Below, in pieces: positions 3,949-13,118 of a stretch of DNA of 22,685 nucleotides. The position numbers and the translations under genes are program-made. Source of the stretch: a virus (taxonomy: Duplodnaviria > Heunggongvirae > Uroviricota > Caudoviricetes). Under the pieces are notes generated by a model, which had not been told where the DNA came from, did no database searches, and saw only the letters and a program-made list of their open reading frames with translations. Each line of letters begins with the position of its first letter. Position 1 is the stretch's first letter. The stretch lies in IMG/VR virus record IMGVR_UViG_2778260997_000018. One strand, given 5' to 3'.

Positions 3949-4802
3949 GCACCATCCTGAAATGGACGGGAAATAAAACCGCCATTATGTCCGAACTGAA
4001 AAAACACCTTCCTGCTGGCCCGCGACTGGTTGAACCTTTCGCGGGTTCCTGTGCTGTGATGATGGAGACGGATTACCCCAGCTATCTGGTTGCGGATATT
4101 AATCCTGATTTAATCAACCTCTATAAAAAGGTTGCTGCTGATTGCGAGGCGTTTATATCTCGTGCCAGAGCTTTATTTGAGGAAGCAAACAGGGAGTTGG
4201 CTTATTACAACATAAGACAGGAGTTTAATTACTCCACTGAAATTACTGATTTCATGAAAGCGGTATATTTCCTGTATCTCAATCGTCATGGTTACCGTGG
4301 GTTATGTCGTTATAACAAGAGCGGGCATTTCAACATTCCATACGGTAATTATAAAAATCCGTATTTCCCTGAAAAAGAAATTCGCGCATTTGCAGAGAAA
4401 GCCCAGCAAGCAACGTTTATCTGCGCCAGCTTTGATGAAACGCTGGCGATGTTGAAGGCGGGGGATGTGGTGTATTGCGATCCGCCTTATGACGGTACGT
4501 TTTCCGGCTATCACGCTGACGGCTTTACTGAAGATGACCAGTATCACCTGGCATCCGTTCTTGAACATCGGTCATCAGAAGGACATCCGGTCATTGTTTC
4601 TAACAGTGACACATCCCTGATCCGTTCGCTGTATCGCAATTTTACTCACCACTATATCAAGGTAAAACGCAGCATCGGCGTAGCAGCTGGTGAGAGTAAA
4701 TCAGCAACAGAAATCATTGCTGTTTCCGGGCCGCGCTGCTGGGTGGGATTTGATTATTCGCGTGGCGTGGATAGTTCTGCCGTGTACGGAGTACGTGCAT
4801 GA
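3945..4802 (+). CDS. dam: DNA adenine methyltransferase (Dam-like, D12 class N6-adenine MTase)
   Basis: Motif I-like FAGSCAV (SAM-binding), catalytic DPPY (CDPPYDG) and a Dam-like N-terminus (ILKWTGNK). ATG 3945 with GGAGG (3935-3939); ORF-track start 3885 is an upstream extension. Stop overlaps the A start (ATGA). Confidence 0.85.
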
Positions 4803-7213
4803 GCCATGCCGATATGAGCAACTGCTGCGGCTTTAAAGAGGCTGCCGCATCGTTCTCATGGAACAGCCCGAAAAAGGCCATTAACCCTTATCTGGACCCG
4901 GCGGAAGTTGCGCCGGTTTCTGCGTTTTCAAACCTGATCACTCTGTACGCTGCCGATAACGAGCAGGAACAACTGCGCCGCGAGGCACTGAGTGATCAGG
5001 TCTGGGAGCGTTATTTCTTTAATGAATCCCGTGATCCTGTCCAACGCGAAATAGAGCAGGATAAGCTCATTAGCCGGGCAAAGTTGGCGCATGAGCAGCA
5101 GCGTTTTAACCCGGACATGGTCATTCTGGCAGACGTCAGCGCCCAGCCCTCCCATATCAGCAAGCCGCTGATGCAACGTATTGAATACTTCAGCAGCCTG
5201 GGCAGGCCAAAGGCTTATTCCCGCTATTTACGTGAGACGATTAAGCCATGTCTGGAACGACTGGAGCATGTACGCGACAGCCAGCTATCTGCATCTTTTC
5301 GTTTTATGGCAAGCCATGTAGGGCTGGACGGCCTGCTGATTCTGCCTGAAATGAGTCAGGATCAGGTGAAACGCCTGTCTACCCTTGTCGCTGCGCATAT
5401 GAGCATGTGCCTTGATGCAGCTTGTGGTGATTTGTATGCCACCGATGACGTTAAGCCAGAAGAAATCCGCAAGACATGGGAAAAGGTGGCAGCGGAAACC
5501 CTGCGTCTGGATGTCATCCCGCCTGTGTTTGAGCAACTCCGTCGGAAAAGAAACCGCCGTAAACCCGTGCCCTATGAACTCATTCCGGGTTCGCTGGCGC
5601 GTATGTTGTGCGCCGACTGGTGGTACCGGAAATTATGGAAAATGCGTTGCGAATGGCGGGAAGAGCAGTTGCGTGCTGTCTGCCTGGTCAGCAAAAAAGC
5701 ATCTCCCTATGTCAGCTATGAAGCCGTGATGCATAAACGTGAGCAGCGCCGCAAGTCACTGGAGTTTTTCCGTTCTCATGAACTGGTGAACGAAGAGGGC
5801 GACACGCTGGATATGGAAGACGTGGTAAACGCCAGCAGCAGCAACCCGGCGCACCGCCGCAATGAGATGATGGCCTGTGTTAAAGGTCTGGAGCTTATCG
5901 CGGAAATGCGCGGTGACTGCGCCGTTTTCTACACCATTACCTGTCCGTCACGTTTCCATTCCACGCTCAATAACGGCAGACCAAACCCAACCTGGACAAA
6001 TGCGACGGTAAGACAAAGCAGCGATTATCTGGTCGGCATGTTTGCTGCATTTCGTAAGGCGATGCACAAAGCCGGGTTGCGCTGGTATGGCGTGCGGGTG
6101 GCTGAGCCGCATCATGACGGTACAGTTCACTGGCACCTGTTGTGTTTCATGCGCAAAAAAGACCGCCGCGCCATTACTGCATTGTTGCGTAAGTTTGCCA
6201 TCCGTGAAGACCGCGAGGAACTGGGTAATAACACTGGTCCACGCTTTAAATCTGAGCTGATAAACCCGCGCAAAGGAACGCCGACAAGCTACATCGCGAA
6301 ATACATCAGTAAGAACATTGACGGGCGTGGTCTGGCTGGCGAGATCAGCAAGGAAACGGGTAAATCCATGCGTGATAACGCTGAATACGTTAATGCCTGG
6401 GCGTCTCTGCATCGTGTTCAGCAATTCCGCTTCTTTGGTATTCCGGGACGTCAGGCTTACCGTGAACTTCGCTTGCTGGCTGGTCAGGCGGCAAGGCAAC
6501 AGGGTGACAAAAAAGCAGGTGCGCCGGTACTGGATAACCCGCGTCTTGATGCCATTCTGGCTGCTGCTGATGCTGGTTGTTTTGCCACCTACATCATGAA
6601 GCAGGGCGGCGTACTGGTTCCCCGCAAATATCACCTCATCAGAACCGCTTATGAAATCAACGAAGAGCCAACCGCCTATGGCGATCACGGTATTCGTATT
6701 TATGGCATCTGGTCACCCATTGCAGAGGGCAAGATCTGCACTCATGCAGTGAAGTGGAAAATGGTTCGTAAGGCCGTTGACGTTCAGGAGGCGGCAGCCG
6801 ACCAGGGCGCTTGCGCCCCTTGGACTCGTGGCAATAACTGTCCCCTTGCTGAAAATTTGAACCAACAAGGGAAAGACAAATCAGCTGATGGGGATACCAG
6901 GACGGACATTACCCGCATGGATGACAAGGCGTTGCACGATTACCTGCACAGTATGAGCAAAAAAGAGCGCCGGGAACTAGCTGCAAGGTTACGCCTGGTG
7001 AAACCGAAACGGCGTAAAGACTACAAACAGCGAATTACAGACCATCAGCGACAGCAGCTCGTCTATGAACTGAAGTCCAGAGGATTTGATGGCAGCGAGA
7101 AAGAGGTCGATTTACTCCTTCGCGGCGGCAGTATTCCGTCAGGAGCAGGCCTGCGTATCTTCTATCGGAACCAGCGTTTGCAGGAAGATGATAAGTGGCG
7201 AAACCTGTATTAA
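4799..7213 (+). CDS. A: Replication initiation endonuclease (P2 gpA / 186 A family, rolling-circle initiator)
   Basis: 804 aa ORF in the position of P2 A; contains a conserved HxH-type block (VHWHLLCF) and the Tyr-rich region [13 protein letters not shown] typical of the gpA nicking-joining active site. Start not certain (in-frame ATGs at 4799 and 4814). Confidence 0.8.
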
Positions 7214-7366: not shown

Positions 7367-7555
7367 ATGCAGGACTATTTTTTGGAGTCTTTGAAGCTCC
7401 AGCGCATTGATTTTTTTCTTAAACTTGTAGCGGCTAGTGAGTGTAGTGATGAAGAGAAGGGGCTGGCTTTGCAGTGGGTTTCTGAACTGACAGATGAACT
7501 CATGGCAAAAATCAGAACCCACGAATACAACCGCTCAATGGATGTCATCAGCTGA
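7367..7555 (+). CDS. Hypothetical small protein (62 aa), first gene of the SOS-regulated operon
   Basis: ATG 7367 with AGGAGG (7357-7362) 4 nt upstream; the ORF-track start 7265 would include the LexA box itself, so the shorter start is preferred. Confidence 0.45.
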   Translation: MQDYFLESLKLQRIDFFLKLVAASECSDEEKGLALQWVSELTDELMAKIRTHEYNRSMDVIS

Positions 7556-7565
7556 GGTGACTTTT

Positions 7566-7799
7566 ATGCGCATTGAAATAATGATCGATAAAGAGCAGAA
7601 GATTAGCCAGTCTACCCTGGACGCCCTTGAATCCGAGCTTTACCGCAATCTGCGCCCCCTGTATCCAAAAACGGTAATTCGCATCCGCAAAGGTAGCTCT
7701 AACGGTGTGGAACTGACCGGACTGCAACTGGACGAAGAAAGGAAGCAAGTGATGAAAATTATGCAGAAGGTGTGGGAAGACGACAGCTGGCTGCATTAA
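7566..7799 (+). CDS. DinI-like protein (possible Tum-type SOS-inducible antirepressor)
   Basis: 77 aa beginning MRIEIMIDK...LESELYRNL...IRIRKGSSNGVELTGLQLDEERKQVMKIMQKVWEDDSW, closely resembling E. coli DinI (MRIEVTIAK...WESADDWF). GAGG 7 nt upstream of the ATG. Downstream of the LexA box; located at the right genome end like tum in 186. Confidence 0.75.
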   Translation: MRIEIMIDKEQKISQSTLDALESELYRNLRPLYPKTVIRIRKGSSNGVELTGLQLDEERKQVMKIMQKVWEDDSWLH

Positions 7800-7921
7800 G
7801 AAACGTTGCTGGCGTCTGAACTTGCTTCTGGCGTCAGCAAGGTTGAACAACGAGCTGTGCGAGGCGTTAGTTGATATAGTATCAATATATAAAAGGTTTC
7901 TCGAAGTTTTAAGGTAAGGTT

Positions 7922-8641
7922 ATGACAACTATTAACAAGCATGGGTTATCTAGAACAATTCCTGAACCTGTAAAACTGGAGGTAAGGCAGCGCTGTGGCT
8001 TCGGTTGCGTTGTTTGTGCTTCTCCCATTGTTGAGTATGAGCATGTAATTCCCACATACGCTGATGCAAAGGAGCACTCACCAAATGCAATAGCACTACT
8101 TTGTCCTACGTGCCATGCGAAAGTAACGAAACGTCTTTACTCTAAAGAGAAAATAATTAAAGCAATGGAATCTCCTGCAGCCTTACAAAAAGGGAATGTG
8201 GCCGATATATTGGACTTTTCTGATAGGCATCCAACAATAATATTTGGTGGTGCGACGTTTGAATCCTGTACTGTACCAATAATGTTTCAAAATGAGCCAT
8301 TGTTAACCATTGAAAAAGAAAATAATGCTTTTCTTATTTCGGGTAAATTTTACGATAGTCAAGGTATTGTTAATCTTGAATTAATTAAGAATGAGTGGGT
8401 TTGTAGTGCAAGGCATTGGGATGTTCAGGTTGTCGGTCCTAGAATAACTATTATAGAAAAAAGGAAAGGTCCTCGTTTAATTATTAAAGTTGATGCGCCT
8501 GAAAGATTGATTGTGGAAAGATTAGATATGTTGGTTAAGGGGACTCGGATTGTAGGAGACGAACACAAGCTAAGAGTAGGTCCACATCAATTTCACAACT
8601 GTGGAGTTTCAAATTGCAATATTGGTTTCTGCTTTGGCTAA
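7922..8641 (+). CDS. HNH-nuclease domain protein with ~170 aa C-terminal domain of unknown function (cargo)
   Basis: N-terminus has the complete HNH signature: CGFGCVVC (C-x2-C) ... EYEHVIP (E-x-H-[IV]-x-P) ... NAIALLCPTCH (N-x-x-x-L-C-x2-C-H). AT-rich codon usage unlike the phage backbone. Confidence 0.7.
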   Translation: MTTINKHGLSRTIPEPVKLEVRQRCGFGCVVCASPIVEYEHVIPTYADAKEHSPNAIALLCPTCHAKVTKRLYSKEKIIKAMESPAALQKGNVADILDFSDRHPTIIFGGATFESCTVPIMFQNEPLLTIEKENNAFLISGKFYDSQGIVNLELIKNEWVCSARHWDVQVVGPRITIIEKRKGPRLIIKVDAPERLIVERLDMLVKGTRIVGDEHKLRVGPHQFHNCGVSNCNIGFCFG

Positions 8642-8754
8642 CTGGAGGTTGGAAAAAGACCATTTCCTATAAGCTGAGTATTTCGTACATTTTTGCCAAC
8701 GCATGTCTATGCCGCATGAAATCGCATGATCGTTTGAGGATCGTTTTTGCTGAT

Positions 8755-8780
8755 GCCCGCCAGAGCTGGCGGGCTTTTGC
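8755..8780 (+). terminator. Rho-independent terminator candidate
   Basis: Stem GCCCGCC (8755-8761) / GGCGGGC (8768-8774), 6 nt loop, then TTTT (8775-8778). Confidence 0.5.
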
Positions 8781-8823: not shown

Positions 8824-8842
8824 GGCGTGGCGGGGATACGAG
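8824..8842. other. Candidate cos (cohesive end) site of the prophage
   Basis: GGCGTGGCGGGGATACGAG: the first 13 nt match my recollection of the 19-nt cohesive end of 186/P2-type phages (GGCG[T/A]GGCGGGGAAAGCA...). The position between the right-end accessory genes and the portal gene is where cos lies in P2/186 prophages. Confidence 0.35.
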
Positions 8843-8955: not shown

Positions 8956-9930
8956 ATGGGGTTAGGATTAAAAGACGCTATTGTGCATACCGCTGCGTTT
9001 CATCAAAAGGAAACTAATGAATTGCAATTGCCAAACAACCATTGGCATCCTGGTTTTATCACTGTCTTAGCAGCTTACGTGAATCATCACAAAATTACCG
9101 AAGATAACTGCGTTTTGTCATGCCCTGACTATATGCGAGCTATCAATTTACATGGTGCTTTATGGGGCGAGGATCAGTATCAACAGGAACGTGTAAATGT
9201 TGGAAGAAATTACAGTTTGGTTACAGCATTAACCAATGTTGAAGCTGTTGACGTTGCCACTGGTAGTATTAACAGTTGTGTAAGGCAGTTAACATTCCCT
9301 GATCGTGATCCGAGAGATTATCCCAAGGGACTTACAGATCTAACTCATGTTATAGGTGAGCTTCACGATAACGTTTGGTCGCATGGAAAATCAACGGGTT
9401 TTTCTTTTGCACAACGTTCGGCTGTACCCCACACACAAAGAAAAGAGCACTATTTAGAATTTTCTTTGGCGGACTGTGGGTTAGGATTTCTCCGAGAATT
9501 GCGGCGAGCTGGTATACCCGGAATTGAGACTCACCAGGATGCGATCGCATGGTGTATTCAAGAGGGACATTCATCTAAGCATGCTGATTTGCAGGATGAT
9601 TGGGCACAGCAACTTCCCCAGGATTTTATTGGGGGTAGTATGTTTGGTCACGGGGTTTCGGTCAAAGAAAAAGATAATAATCATCAAGGGCTTGGGTTAT
9701 ATCACTTGATGAAATTGATAAAAACATATAATGGGGAATTGCAACTGGCTTCAGGAAATGTATGCTTAGAAGCAATAGGTGATGAAGTGAGCTATACTGA
9801 ATTACGTACTAAATGGCCGGGTGTAGCAATTTCTTGCCGTTTTAAGATTCATGAACTGGCAGTCGATAAAGATAGCGAAGAAAATGACCCTCAGCTTATG
9901 GAAATAATGCGGGCGTTAGGAGGAGAGTAA
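8956..9930 (+). CDS. GHKL-superfamily ATPase/kinase-like protein (HATPase_c-like C-terminal domain; ~130 aa N-terminal domain of unknown function)
   Basis: Bergerat-fold motifs in order and correct spacing: N-box GELHDNVWSHG (aa 134-144; 9355-9387), G1 box ADCGLGF (aa 172-178; D-x-G-x-G), G2 box GLGLY (aa 245-249). Resembles RsbW/SpoIIAB-type serine kinases. AT-rich; stop overlaps the next start. Confidence 0.7.
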   Translation: MGLGLKDAIVHTAAFHQKETNELQLPNNHWHPGFITVLAAYVNHHKITEDNCVLSCPDYMRAINLHGALWGEDQYQQERVNVGRNYSLVTALTNVEAVDVATGSINSCVRQLTFPDRDPRDYPKGLTDLTHVIGELHDNVWSHGKSTGFSFAQRSAVPHTQRKEHYLEFSLADCGLGFLRELRRAGIPGIETHQDAIAWCIQEGHSSKHADLQDDWAQQLPQDFIGGSMFGHGVSVKEKDNNHQGLGLYHLMKLIKTYNGELQLASGNVCLEAIGDEVSYTELRTKWPGVAISCRFKIHELAVDKDSEENDPQLMEIMRALGGE

Positions 9931-10268
9931 TGAACAAAATCGCATACAAGTTACCCGAGGGTGACCTGGCTTCGCGCAATCAGGCTATCCCCCAACGACA
10001 CAAGATTGAAGGGTTCATTAAAGAAGGGTATACCGTAGATTTGGACCTGAGCGGTGTTTATTCAATTTCAGAATCATACTCTGATGAAATCTTTGGTGTT
10101 TTGGTAGTGAAATTCGGTGTAACCAAAGTTTTGAGTCAGGTTAAGGTTCGCAATGCATCCCCTTCAATTTTAAAAAGTATTGCAAAAGTGATCCAACGTC
10201 GTAGCAATGAAGTAGCATCAAAAAAGGTTCATTCCGTTGGATTTGATGGTTTATACGCCGTTTGTTAA
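9930..10268 (+). CDS. STAS-like small protein (anti-sigma-factor-antagonist-like / DUF4325-like), partner of the GHKL protein
   Basis: 112 aa. Segment VDLDLSGVYSISESYSDEIFGVL resembles the STAS/SpoIIAA core (LDLSGV-x-F-x-DSSG). ATG overlaps the upstream stop (TAATG) with GGAGGA 7 nt upstream, indicating translational coupling. Confidence 0.6.
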   Translation: MNKIAYKLPEGDLASRNQAIPQRHKIEGFIKEGYTVDLDLSGVYSISESYSDEIFGVLVVKFGVTKVLSQVKVRNASPSILKSIAKVIQRRSNEVASKKVHSVGFDGLYAVC

Positions 10269-10314: not shown

Positions 10315-11352
10315 TTATTCCTGAGCACCTAAAACATAGTCATCAAAACGTATTACTTCTGCACCCACCCATTCGTTTAGTTCATGTAGTCGCTTCTGTA
10401 GTGGCATCAGTTCATTGCGGACAAATACACGACTCGCTTTCTCTACATCCCCAAACCCCCCAACATTATTCGGCATAATCCCCATCATCTGTGGCGGAAC
10501 ACGATGCGCGGCCATCATGTCATCACGACTCACGTTCTTGATGTTCAGAAATTCATCTTTCGCCGCGACTTCTGATAACGGGATAATCTGAAGTCCGTCC
10601 TTTTTGCCGTTAGGCGAGTACATAAACAGATTGCGGAAGTTACCTGGTCCTTTGGCGCTTTTCATTGCATTGCGGAGGTTGTTTACATCCTCCTGGTTTT
10701 GTGCGGCGTCGGTCATGTACATGATGAAGCCTGCATGACTGCCGTTAATGTAATACTTCCGGCGGAACAGCGTGGCGGACTCGTTGAGCAGGGCTGACGG
10801 AATGGCAGAAAGATAACCGGGCAGGCCGTAGATCTCCTGGTTGATGTCCGGTTCCATCAGATGAAAAATGCTGCCTTTCGTGAACTGATACGGCTGGGTT
10901 GTCATACCGTATTGCACAAACCAGTAGGTATCCAGGTCTAACCCGCGTCGGGTGTATTTTGCCAGAGCAGGCTCAAGGGCGATAACTTCACCGAAGCGGT
11001 TCGTGCGTTTCTCTAGGTAGGCGTTACCAAATACCAGATAGTCCTGCACAAAACGTGAAAAAGCCTGCTGGCTGAGCAGCGGGTGAGGGATGTAGGTACT
11101 GGTCAGAATGTTGCATTTCACCGCAATTGGTGAGCTGTGATGCACGGCGGCGCGGAAGGTTCGTGCCAGTCCGTCAAAGCTGACGGGCGGCTCATACCAG
11201 CGATCCATCTGTACGCATTCCACATAGTCCAGCAGTTCACGGCGGTCCAGAACAGGAACGGGATCGCCAAAGCTGAATGCTTCGGCTGAAGTTTGGCTTT
11301 TATGCTTGAGCTGATTCGTCGCCGCAGCGCGGTTTTTCTTACTCTTTCCCAT
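10315..11352 (-). CDS. Q: Portal protein (P2 gpQ family)
   Basis: 345 aa; length, sequence character and position (leftmost late gene, convergent with the cargo, upstream partner of the terminase) match P2 Q. ATG at 11352 overlaps the P stop (TGATG); the ORF track starts one codon earlier at TTG. Confidence 0.9.
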   Translation of the reverse strand: MGKSKKNRAAATNQLKHKSQTSAEAFSFGDPVPVLDRRELLDYVECVQMDRWYEPPVSFDGLARTFRAAVHHSSPIAVKCNILTSTYIPHPLLSQQAFSRFVQDYLVFGNAYLEKRTNRFGEVIALEPALAKYTRRGLDLDTYWFVQYGMTTQPYQFTKGSIFHLMEPDINQEIYGLPGYLSAIPSALLNESATLFRRKYYINGSHAGFIMYMTDAAQNQEDVNNLRNAMKSAKGPGNFRNLFMYSPNGKKDGLQIIPLSEVAAKDEFLNIKNVSRDDMMAAHRVPPQMMGIMPNNVGGFGDVEKASRVFVRNELMPLQKRLHELNEWVGAEVIRFDDYVLGAQE

Positions 11353-13118
11353 CAAAAAATCTCCACAATATTGCTGGTATTGGCGGACTCGCCCTGCAGC
11401 GGTTCATTAAACAGTGCGTGCATTGTTGCCCAGGCCAGATCGGCGTGGCTGGCTTCTTCGCTGCGGCTGGCTTCATAGGTCGGGCGGTTGCCGCTGGCAG
11501 TGGTGGCGCGACGGATTGCCATAAAGGACTGCGCTATGTCGGTGTGCCCGGCGTCAAACTCCAGGCGGCGGTGACTGATAATGTCGTAGGCCTTGAGTAC
11601 CAGAGCGTTTTTAACGTTGGGGTTGTAGACAAACTCCCGGACGGCAGGAAAAAACGCTTTCACGTTCTCGTAAACCCCGTGACCAACGCCGGTTGAGTCG
11701 ATGCCGATATAGGTCACGTTGTACTGTTCGGTCAGTTTTTTGATGGCGTCAGCCTGGGCGCGAAAGTCCATCCCGCGCCACTGGTGACGCTCAAGAATGC
11801 GGAACTTGCCGCCCGGCACGGCTGGCGGTGCCACCACCACGCATCCGGCACTGTCGCCGTTCTGCGTACCTTTCGCCGGGTCATAACCGATCCACACTTC
11901 GCGCCAGCCAAACGGGCGCAGTGCCAGTGCATGAAAGTCGGTCCAGACTTCCCAGCTGTCCACCATGCACGCCTGCAGCTCGCTGAGCGGGAACACGGAC
12001 GCGAGATCGTCCACGAACTCGCACATCAGCAGGTTCTGGTATTCGTCCGGGCTGTACTCCATGCGTAGCTGGTCGAGGTCGAACAGGTTACAGCCGCCGC
12101 GCACCGCATCTTCCACGGTGACTATCTGGCGGTATTGCCCGTCTGCGCACAGCAGGCCGGGGGCCAGATTGCTGTGGGACAGGTCGATGTCCACCTTATC
12201 GGCTTTGTTGCGCCCACGGTTGAACAGCGCACCGGACCAGAACGGATAAGCACTGTGTGTCAGACTGGATGGCGTGGAAAAATAGGTCTGTCGCCATTTT
12301 TTGTGAATAGCCATACCGGAAGCCACTTTGCGCAGCTCCTGGAATTTCGGTATCCAGAAATATTCATCCAGATACAGGTTGCCGTGGTAACTCTGGGCCG
12401 TGCGGGCATTGGTGCCGAGGAAGTAAAGCGTGGCCCCGTTGGGAAGCACCATCGGATCGCCTTTCAGTTCCACATCCACTTCTTTGGCGAAGTCGATGAT
12501 GTACTGCTTAAAGACGTGAGCCTGTGCCTTACTGGCAGAAAGGAAAATCTGGTTACGTCCGGTAAGCAGGGCGTCAATCAGGGCTTCACGGGCAAAGTAA
12601 AAGGTCGCGCCGATCTGGCGTGACTTCAGCAGGTTGCGGATGCGGTTGGTTTTTCCGGCTTCCCACCAGTGGCGCTGGTAGTTGAACATGGAGGAATGGA
12701 AGATTTCTTCCAGTTTCTCTATCTGTTCATCGGTGAAAACATTCTTTTCCGGCTGACGGCGCGGGCCTTTGTTGCGGTTGGCGACGTTAGGGTTTAAGTC
12801 GGCTTCGTTGCCGCCATTGTTAAACTTGCCGATCCGCGCGTGGCGCTCCGACTGGCGCGCCAGCAGGTCAATTTCTTTGAAATCTTTCCCTTCTTTGTGC
12901 TCCTTCATAATGAGCTGGCAGTAACGTGCGGCGGTGGTGAGCTGCATCTGATCCAGCGGCCCATAGTCACCCCACTTGTCGCGTTTCTTCCAGCTGTGAA
13001 CGGTTGCAACTTTCTCGCCCAGCATTTCAGCAATGCGGGCTACGCGGTATCCCTGAAAGTACAGCAGCATGGCCTGCCGACGGGGATCGAGATCTGCGGG
13101 TGTCAGTGTGGTGTTCAT
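11352..13118 (-). CDS. P: Terminase large subunit (P2 gpP family ATPase/nuclease)
   Basis: 588 aa (P2 P about 590 aa), start ATG at 13118. Contains a Walker A-like GATFYF and acidic nuclease motifs. Divergent from the O-N-M-L operon as in P2. Confidence 0.9.
   Translation of the reverse strand: MNTTLTPADLDPRRQAMLLYFQGYRVARIAEMLGEKVATVHSWKKRDKWGDYGPLDQMQLTTAARYCQLIMKEHKEGKDFKEIDLLARQSERHARIGKFNNGGNEADLNPNVANRNKGPRRQPEKNVFTDEQIEKLEEIFHSSMFNYQRHWWEAGKTNRIRNLLKSRQIGATFYFAREALIDALLTGRNQIFLSASKAQAHVFKQYIIDFAKEVDVELKGDPMVLPNGATLYFLGTNARTAQSYHGNLYLDEYFWIPKFQELRKVASGMAIHKKWRQTYFSTPSSLTHSAYPFWSGALFNRGRNKADKVDIDLSHSNLAPGLLCADGQYRQIVTVEDAVRGGCNLFDLDQLRMEYSPDEYQNLLMCEFVDDLASVFPLSELQACMVDSWEVWTDFHALALRPFGWREVWIGYDPAKGTQNGDSAGCVVVAPPAVPGGKFRILERHQWRGMDFRAQADAIKKLTEQYNVTYIGIDSTGVGHGVYENVKAFFPAVREFVYNPNVKNALVLKAYDIISHRRLEFDAGHTDIAQSFMAIRRATTASGNRPTYEASRSEEASHADLAWATMHALFNEPLQGESANTSNIVEIF

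Follow-up and report, generated by a model that had tools for sequence, protein, structure and literature searches.

The interval between gpA and gpQ is the P2 hotspot described by Rousset et al. (2022), in which 18,150 loci yielded 1650 gene arrangements and several anti-phage systems, old-tin included, have been validated (PMC9122126). Table S5B of that work lists, as system #159, "HNH," a 239-aa sequence exactly that of the protein considered here, with 11 occurrences and the remark "Likely a nuclease," and the accession appears 16 times in the arrangement table alongside various other cargos (PMC9122126). System #159 was catalogued and lies outside the set that was cloned and assayed (PMC9122126). 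The gene studied here shares both its sequence and its locus with that entry, and our results agree with the remark. The catalogue does not describe the C-terminal domain, nor how large the family is or that its members stand alone. Literature searches by accession, for HNH proteins of the P2 hotspot, and for solitary HNH defense proteins found no functional study, nor any experiment that ties phage resistance to this protein or to another member of its family. The DefensePredictor study reported a 301-aa Escherichia coli "HNH endonuclease," HNH1 (WP_252151320.1), as non-defensive; it is a possible relative of the present family. Two candidates for HNH1 were rejected: the E. coli paralog P0070 cannot be extended to 301 aa, and the family member P0103 has 301 aa but does not come from E. 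coli.

In P2 (AF063097) the equivalent slot reads orf91 - tin - old - cosR. Like the HNH gene, tin and old lie between a gpA-proximal small open reading frame and cos, and they are dispensable cargo of the accessory kind; Old, an ATPase-Toprim protein, is also a nuclease. Neither Old nor Tin is homologous to the HNH protein, which was unmatched by the PADLOC models for Old and Tin. An initial annotation of this DNA had placed the HNH gene at the old/tin position of P2, and the slots are indeed equivalent, but the strands differ: tin and old run in the opposite direction from their own promoter near cos, whereas the HNH gene follows the direction of gpA and dinI.

Other described nucleases share the domain content or the logic of the HNH protein. 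Cap5 of CBASS (HNH-SAVED) also joins an N-terminal HNH domain to a C-terminal sensor, but the C-terminal beta domain of the HNH protein is not SAVED, and Cap5 is encoded in an operon with a CD-NTase cyclase, whereas no cyclase recurs beside the HNH gene in 80 loci. Type IV restriction employs nucleases without a cognate methyltransferase, as would the HNH protein; however, the HNH enzymes of this type (EcoKMcrA, ScoMcrA, TagI, and VcaM4I) have the reversed domain order, the HNH domain being N-terminal here, and the beta domain resembles none of the type IV reader folds (SRA, PUA/EVE, McrA-N, and winged helix), all of which are represented in the PDB. No recognizable modified-base reader (SRA, PUA/EVE/ASCH, McrA-N, winged helix, or DUF3578) was found in the HNH protein. 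The HNH protein of Septu, PtuB, is the partner of the PtuA ATPase (ABC/AAA_15-21), whose gene is adjacent and co-oriented, whereas the HNH gene can be the sole cargo of its hotspot.

The locus and its cassette

The window analyzed here is the whole of a 22,685-nucleotide stretch of viral DNA (IMG/VR record IMGVR_UViG_2778260997_000018), and all of it is identified as a P2/186-like prophage. The features relevant to the HNH gene are as follows.

4799-7213: gpA replication endonuclease
7367-7555: 62-aa open reading frame (phrog_698)
7566-7799: DinI-like gene (PF06183, E=6.6e-23)
7871-8700, plus strand: variable single-gene cassette of ~830 bp between the dinI-proximal and cos-proximal backbone
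7871-7885, plus strand: palindrome TTGATA-TAG-TATCAA at the left cassette edge, read from the sequence
7872-7880, plus strand: extended -10-like element TGaTATAGT within the palindrome
7911-7919, plus strand: Shine-Dalgarno-like AAGGTAAGG upstream of the ATG at 7922, read from the sequence and supporting that start
7922-8641, plus strand: HNH gene, coding sequence of 239 aa with an ATG start, from the list of open reading frames and the sequence
7922-8176, plus strand: predicted N-terminal HNH (beta-beta-alpha-metal) nuclease domain, residues 1-85
8177-8638, plus strand: predicted C-terminal all-beta domain of ~17 strands, residues 86-239
8755-8774, plus strand: intrinsic-terminator-like hairpin GCCCGCCAGAGCTGGCGGGC followed by TTTT, the first terminator 3' of the HNH gene
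8824-8836: cos core GGCGTGGCGGGGA, with a longer form, GGCGTGGCGGGGATACGAG, at 8824-8842; a unique match, with 0 expected by chance
8956-10268: two-gene pair (HATPase/STAS), across cos from the HNH gene
10315-11355, minus strand: portal Q
11352-13118, minus strand: terminase P

Lying between gpA and portal Q of a P2-like prophage, the HNH gene occupies the gpA-gpQ hotspot. The open reading frame is present as the initial annotation had described it, and its start is further backed by homologs that open at the same N-terminal motif, MxxxNKHGLSR. Its placement between the DinI-like gene and a terminator was also confirmed, as was its AT-richness, with a GC content of 0.35-0.44 over the HNH gene versus 0.52-0.62 in gpA, portal, and terminase. 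In an E. coli locus that is 99.4% identical (L001), the same 239-aa gene bears the RefSeq name "HNH endonuclease" (WP_000207842.1). The terminator-like hairpin belongs to the conserved phage backbone outside the cassette and is kept in all four aligned prophages. The cos core is likewise conserved in four of four, and with respect to portal and terminase it is placed as it is in P2; we take its longer form to resemble the cohesive end of 186.

The limits of the cassette were read from a four-way alignment of the window, which carries the HNH gene and the HATPase/STAS pair, with three other prophage loci. One of these, L001, has HNH alone as the only cargo of its E. coli hotspot; in L015 the site is empty and the HATPase/STAS pair is present; and L016 combines an unrelated 219-aa cargo with the pair. 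The common backbone runs to GCGAGGCGTTAG (ending at position 7870) and restarts at GCATGTCTATGCC (position 8701), and the empty-site junction reads GCGAGGCGTTAG followed directly by CTCTGTGGTGCATGTC. The junctions are identical for the empty, alternative-cargo, HNH-only, and HNH-plus-pair configurations. From these four configurations it follows that the pair across cos is a unit separate from the HNH cassette.

The initial annotation had proposed a survey of related prophages, in which the gene turned out to be variably present. The flanking backbone was found in 1254 of 5426 complete E. coli genomes, and the HNH gene in only 21 of those 1254; it is missing from ~98% of related prophages. Where matched, the 21 E. 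coli copies share 99.1-99.9% DNA identity, and in every case the annotation is that of an HNH endonuclease coding sequence. The HNH gene is a dispensable, mobile, single-gene accessory cassette.

An HNH domain joined to a conserved beta domain

The HNH signature of the protein reads C29-x2-C32, E38-Y-E-H41-V-I-P44, and N55-x3-L-L-C61-x2-C64-H65. The Pfam HNH family PF01844 matches residues 29-71 (E=2.4e-5; score 24.8 bits, above the cut-off of 21.4) and also matches 36 of 45 family members. An AlphaFold2 model built with 45 diverse homologs as input was confident (pLDDT 94.3, pTM 0.86); it predicts a beta-beta-alpha arrangement of strands 38-41 and 57-60 and helix 62-69, and the modeled domain superposes on the HNH domains of McrA, IscB, and Cap5. 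In the family alignment C29, C32, C61, H41, H52, and Y39 are invariant, as are residues N5, G8, L9, R11, P14, and R22 of the N-terminal motif, while E40 and C64 are kept at 90% or more. Among 252 full-length relatives, 221 retain the pattern CxxC...[E/D]H...CxxC[H/N] (E in 200 and D in 13; H in 164 and N in 51), and in several of eight inspected relatives that do not match it the second zinc knuckle takes a CxxHH form. The signature had been called textbook at the outset; the above-cut-off match to PF01844 bears this out, except that N55, the canonical middle asparagine, varies within the family, and H52 is invariant instead.

The predicted zinc ligands of the HNH protein are C29, C32, C61, and C64, and the predicted catalytic residues are E40-H41 and H65. 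In such a CCCC-zinc active site, which is of the McrA/Cap5/IscB type, E40 and H65 would bind the metal and H41 would serve as the general base. Because the domain has a Pfam match, a confident model, and conserved residues, the possibility that the motif does not fold as a nuclease, which the initial annotation had left open, was set aside. As modeled and aligned, the N-terminal domain has a genuine HNH nuclease fold with a complete active site conserved across the family, and the protein would be expected to cleave DNA in vivo.

The beta domain was modeled with a pLDDT of 92-94, whether as part of the full-length protein or alone. Its invariant residues N157 and W159 (in an N-E-W motif) and W166-D167 are concentrated in one hairpin, N157-E-W159 ... 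W166-D167; M203 is also invariant, and the N-x-W...WD motif is kept in 237 of 252 relatives. The domain had no Pfam family match in any of 45 members scanned, a sequence-profile search of the PDB gave nothing below E=1.2, and a Foldseek search against BFVD gave nothing below E=0.09, in keeping with the earlier remark that the C-terminal ~170 aa match nothing recognizable. No known modified-DNA reader fold or ligand-sensor fold was detectable in it, and an hhalign comparison of its N-terminal and C-terminal halves gave no indication of an internal duplication (probability 3.6%). The beta domain is real and conserved, and it has no match to a known family or structure. At the level of the whole protein, PADLOC-DB 2.0 and NCBIfam contain no model for it, giving weak matches to the HNH core only, and searches of PADLOC-DB 2.0 with the protein and 45 relatives gave no full-length match to a defense protein, the weak matches having E values of 6e-4 or worse. 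PtuB was among the PADLOC models left unmatched by these sequences.

Distribution, neighborhoods, and expression of the family

A word-index search retrieved 269 relatives, nearly all of 237-270 aa and spanning both domains. With the beta domain only, an exhaustive profile search found 1903 cluster representatives at E<=1e-3 and 998 at E<=1e-10, counted as clusters at 50% identity; in nearly all of the 150 matches listed of these 1903, the beta domain begins at about residue 85-90, after the HNH domain. Judged from these alignments, the HNH domain appears always to be fused to the same beta domain, a two-domain architecture that defines a large family. An architecture of 165 aa, apparently consisting of the C-terminal domain only, was rejected, as its start is an internal methionine matching M82, and these entries are most likely truncated gene calls. 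A minority of members have extra C-terminal modules (TPR, SEC-C, CxxCxxCC, or unknown). A profile scan of contigs from species-representative genomes, run on a 12-sequence alignment, placed relatives in Proteobacteria, Cyanobacteria, Bacteroidota, Planctomycetota, Verrucomicrobiota, Chlamydiota, Acidobacteriota, Chloroflexota, Clostridia, Actinobacteria, Deinococcus, a CPR bacterium, and a Methanothrix MAG. In PHROGs the family is phrog_6544, of "unknown function."

Most family members are chromosomal, with no phage context or packaging genes nearby. Those found in phages sit in diverse moron positions. A Hafnia P2-like prophage carries its copy in the same hotspot, an Erwinia P2-like prophage has one flanked by tail genes, to which it runs antisense, and the copy of a Pseudomonas prophage is antisense to all neighbors. 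In Enterobacter lambdoid prophages the gene directly follows the replication genes O/P, and in lambdoid phages and prophages of E. coli and Klebsiella it is found at other places in the early/nin region. Small Acinetobacter plasmids carry a member beside BrnTA toxin-antitoxin genes and an AAA_15/21 pair, and a few other plasmids also carry family members. The AAA_15/21 genes close to the Hafnia and Acinetobacter copies come with a second gene of their own, and cos or a distance of 1.8 kb separates them from the family member.

Clustering of every open reading frame up to 4 kb from the gene, in 80 species, gave no recurring neighbor gene family, generic signaling domains aside. The only cluster present in more than four loci, a candidate partner seen in 15 of 80, was rejected because it consists of generic response-regulator, GGDEF, and histidine-kinase domains whose positions and strands vary. 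No methylase is encoded in the cassette and none recurs among the neighbors in the 80 species, there was no cyclase among the best 25 of 122 neighbor families, and no antitoxin-like gene lies beside the HNH gene. Since no neighbor recurs in 80 species, the HNH protein probably works alone, with no Septu-like ATPase partner, methylase, or cyclase; the Septu-like pairing that had been suggested as a check was not found, as no ATPase cluster recurs in the 80 loci.

The 147 immediate neighbors in these species include four integrases and a few defense genes (GmrSD, a type IV restriction endonuclease, HEC-05/06, Cas6, and HerA), and the majority are unrelated housekeeping or signaling genes. The link to mobile elements and defense genes is clear in Enterobacteria and modest elsewhere. 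That neighbors outside Enterobacteria are mostly of the housekeeping or signaling kind, with a modest enrichment of defense genes, is an observation that runs against a defensive reading of the family.

The HNH gene points the same way as the early lytic operon, gpA-dinI. There is no predicted terminator between the dinI stop codon and the ATG of the HNH gene, and a scan for consensus -35 and -10 elements upstream of the gene found no canonical sigma-70 promoter; given this shared direction and the lack of both signals, expression may be mainly lytic and not lysogenic. Co-direction with the early lytic operon is a second observation at odds with defense. The palindrome at the left cassette edge, with its extended -10-like element, is a possible promoter or operator belonging to the HNH gene itself. 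Elsewhere in the family, a terminator-like hairpin, read by eye, precedes the Hafnia copy; together with the antisense copies of Erwinia and Pseudomonas, it suggests an autonomous transcription unit in these cases and argues for autonomous expression of the gene.

Possible roles of the HNH protein

The HNH gene is a catalogued yet uncharacterized candidate that combines an HNH effector with a structurally unmatched domain in a known defense hotspot. Of the roles considered, defense or exclusion best fits the locus, the behavior of the cassette, and its stand-alone status, and we lean slightly toward it. In this proposal, which we hold with little more than even confidence, the HNH protein would be a self-contained anti-phage defense or exclusion nuclease whose beta domain supplies recognition of the target or trigger. 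It would be a horizontally mobile DNA endonuclease that a P2/186-like prophage carries as a moron or lysogenic-conversion gene in its hotspot near cos, and it would act to exclude phages or mobile elements to the benefit of the lysogen and the prophage. A standalone defense or exclusion nuclease was among the suggestions of the initial annotation. It fits the hotspot cassette carried by 21 of 1254 backbones, the want of a partner in 80 species, the antisense copies, and the conserved catalytic residues; the defensive part we infer.

Some gate would be needed, because a solitary nuclease that was always active and cut without specificity would kill the cell. The beta domain would discriminate, after which the HNH domain would cut DNA. 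The domain may recognize a feature of foreign DNA in the manner of type IV restriction, with no cognate methylase; McrA, borne by the e14 prophage, is a precedent for this option. Alternatively, it may keep the nuclease inactive until a phage-derived trigger binds, leading to abortive infection in a Cap5-like way. Because no reader or sensor fold is detectable in the beta domain, we infer the mechanism of discrimination purely from this reasoning. In a broader proposal, to which we give rather less than even credence, the HNH-plus-beta proteins would be an unrecognized, widespread single-protein immune system in which the beta domain, reading a feature of foreign DNA or binding a phage-derived trigger, is a new sensor gating the HNH domain and the N-E-W...W-D hairpin is its binding site.

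Several other roles were weighed against defense. The orientation of the HNH gene fits an accessory DNA-processing nuclease that serves the lytic cycle of the phage itself and is expressed with the early operon and not in the lysogen. Such an enzyme might enhance recombination or cut particular structures, as P1 Ref or T4 endonuclease VII do, or it might break down the DNA of the host or of competitors once the prophage is induced. This role is unlikely, as the Erwinia and Pseudomonas copies are antisense to the flanking phage operons and the Hafnia copy lies behind a terminator-like hairpin; moreover, most of the family is chromosomal and outside any phage context, the gene is dispensable for ~98% of related prophages, and similarity to Ref is confined to the generic HNH core. 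Quite unlikely, in our view, is a selfish, free-standing homing-type HNH endonuclease, which would cut cassette-less alleles and propagate by gene conversion, to the advantage of neither host nor phage. Free-standing phage homing endonucleases likewise combine an N-terminal HNH domain with a C-terminal domain that here may possibly bind DNA, presence and absence are polymorphic at a fixed site between conserved genes, and two of 45 family members had a weak match to the PADLOC "HEase" model (E about 4e-3). However, unrelated cargo occupies exactly the same junctions and the locus has more than 1600 gene arrangements (PMC9122126), for which reasons the turnover is a property of the hotspot and not of the HNH gene. 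Homing endonucleases of the HNH class have a fixed target gene or site or an intron or intein context, and none was found for this family: no flanking or target gene is conserved across 80 species, and the prophages, plasmids, and chromosomes that carry members have them at several unlike sites. The absence of NUMOD, IENR1, and HTH modules (Pfam, 45 members) and an HNH domain of the CCCC-zinc type also speak against homing, and the initial suggestion of a homing-type endonuclease is accordingly disfavored.

The protein might also have no part in present-day conflict between phage and host, being a domesticated or decaying nuclease or else a toxin-like addiction module. This would suit the scattered phyletic distribution, the often housekeeping neighborhoods, and the failure to find a partner gene or known regulator. 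We regard this as very unlikely, since both domains, catalytic residues included, are strongly conserved over many phyla, the 21 E. coli copies are nearly identical and each annotated as a coding sequence, and no antitoxin-like gene adjoins the cassette. The last role, that of an HNH helper of terminase in cos cleavage or packaging, of the HK97 gp74 or phage gamma nicking type, draws on position: 183 bp separate the end of the gene from the cos core, the gene lies within ~1.7 kb of portal and ~2.7 kb of terminase, and there is a precedent for HNH genes adjoining cos and terminase (PMC3592412). Those packaging HNH proteins (N.phiGamma, GVE2 HNH, and HK97 gp74 type) are, however, 121-130 aa long and syntenic with the small and large terminase subunits and portal (PMC3592412). 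The HNH protein, in contrast, has 239 aa, including a 155-aa beta domain that they lack, and whereas such a helper would be expected throughout a phage lineage, the HNH gene is lacking in most phages of its own. Because the site also occurs empty, with other cargo, and with HNH alone, the gene is not a packaging helper; only 21 of the 1254 E. coli genomes with the backbone carry it, most of the family has no packaging genes nearby, and, to our knowledge, the P2-type terminase (gpP/gpM) needs no HNH protein. The helper of cos cleavage, raised by the initial annotation, is exceedingly improbable.

Should the defensive role prove true, the HNH gene would be a nuclease-based immune gene that is both very compact (239 aa, with neither partner nor methylase) and very widespread, its recognition domain would have no structural precedent and would represent a new recognition principle among single-gene defenses, and it might offer a small, portable HNH module that is gated or specific to a sequence or modification. 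Should it prove wrong, the gene would be an ordinary accessory phage HNH nuclease. The window itself illustrates cleanly how modules turn over at the P2 cos hotspot, where two independent cassettes flank cos and all four combinations of their presence and absence occur in nature.

Extra C-terminal modules and active-site variants of the HNH-beta family

Several relatives of the 239-aa HNH protein, namely, P0195, P0101, P0235, P0220, and P0261, carry additional C-terminal modules beyond the beta domain, including TPR repeats, a SEC-C motif, a CxxCxxCC zinc/iron domain, and a region of about 400 aa for which no Pfam match was found. This pattern suggests that the extra modules are add-ons attached to a conserved HNH-beta core.

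Variation also extends to the active site. One subfamily has C-x2-H-H as its second zinc knuckle, in contrast to the usual C-x2-C-H, and another, comprised of lambdoid prophage copies, has N in place of H65, the HNH residue following that knuckle (C-S-Q-C-N). Members P0038, P0152, P0156, and P0157 together exemplify the two variants.

An Escherichia coli “HNH endonuclease,” HNH1 (WP_252151320.1, 301 aa), was cloned in the DefensePredictor study and scored as nondefensive (PMC13092281, Table S6); it may or may not be related to the HNH-beta family.

Prophage paralogues and plasmid neighbors

The following features were located in other replicons:

L098 (E. coli lambdoid prophage), 6001-6783: 260-aa HNH-beta paralogue in the nin region
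L003 (Acinetobacter plasmid), 6784-7143: 119-aa ORF, also in L004-L006
L003, 7132-7539: 135-aa ORF, also in L004-L006

The E. coli paralogue (42% identity) has 262 member sequences, and a 261-aa Klebsiella version (cluster P0082/P0282) occurs on >1000 contigs. Among enterobacterial prophages, the HNH-beta family is thus much more common in lambdoid than in P2-like elements. On the Acinetobacter plasmids, the same two neighbors invariably come after the homologue: the 119-aa ORF on the same strand and the convergent 135-aa ORF, neither of which had a Pfam match. This pairing was not seen in other lineages.

Sequence elements near the HNH gene and a cassette across cos

Three features of the window lie outside the HNH coding sequence:

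7811-7838: direct repeat of CTGGCGTC with 12-bp spacing, in conserved backbone immediately 3' of the dinI stop codon
7871-7885: perfect palindrome TTGATA-TAG-TATCAA at the extreme left end of the HNH cassette
8956-10268 (+): two-gene cassette between cos and portal gene Q, separate from the HNH cassette

No terminator hairpin is formed by the direct repeat. The palindrome overlaps an extended -10-like element (TGaTATAGT) and could be a promoter or operator belonging to the HNH cassette itself. In L014, a similar TGATATAG (about 5965-5972) precedes the Hafnia homologue.

The two genes across cos overlap by one base. The first encodes a 324-aa product with only weak GHKL/HATPase_c similarity and a match to phrog_3364 (E = 1e-67), and the second encodes a 112-aa STAS-like DUF4325 protein (E = 9e-10) that matched a DrmA segment in PADLOC (E = 2e-6). 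This pair looks like an independent candidate system. Two prophages have the pair but lack the HNH gene: L015, where the HNH site is empty, and L016, where that site holds an unrelated 219-aa cargo. The pair is missing from L001, an E. coli prophage in which the HNH gene is the only cargo of the hotspot.
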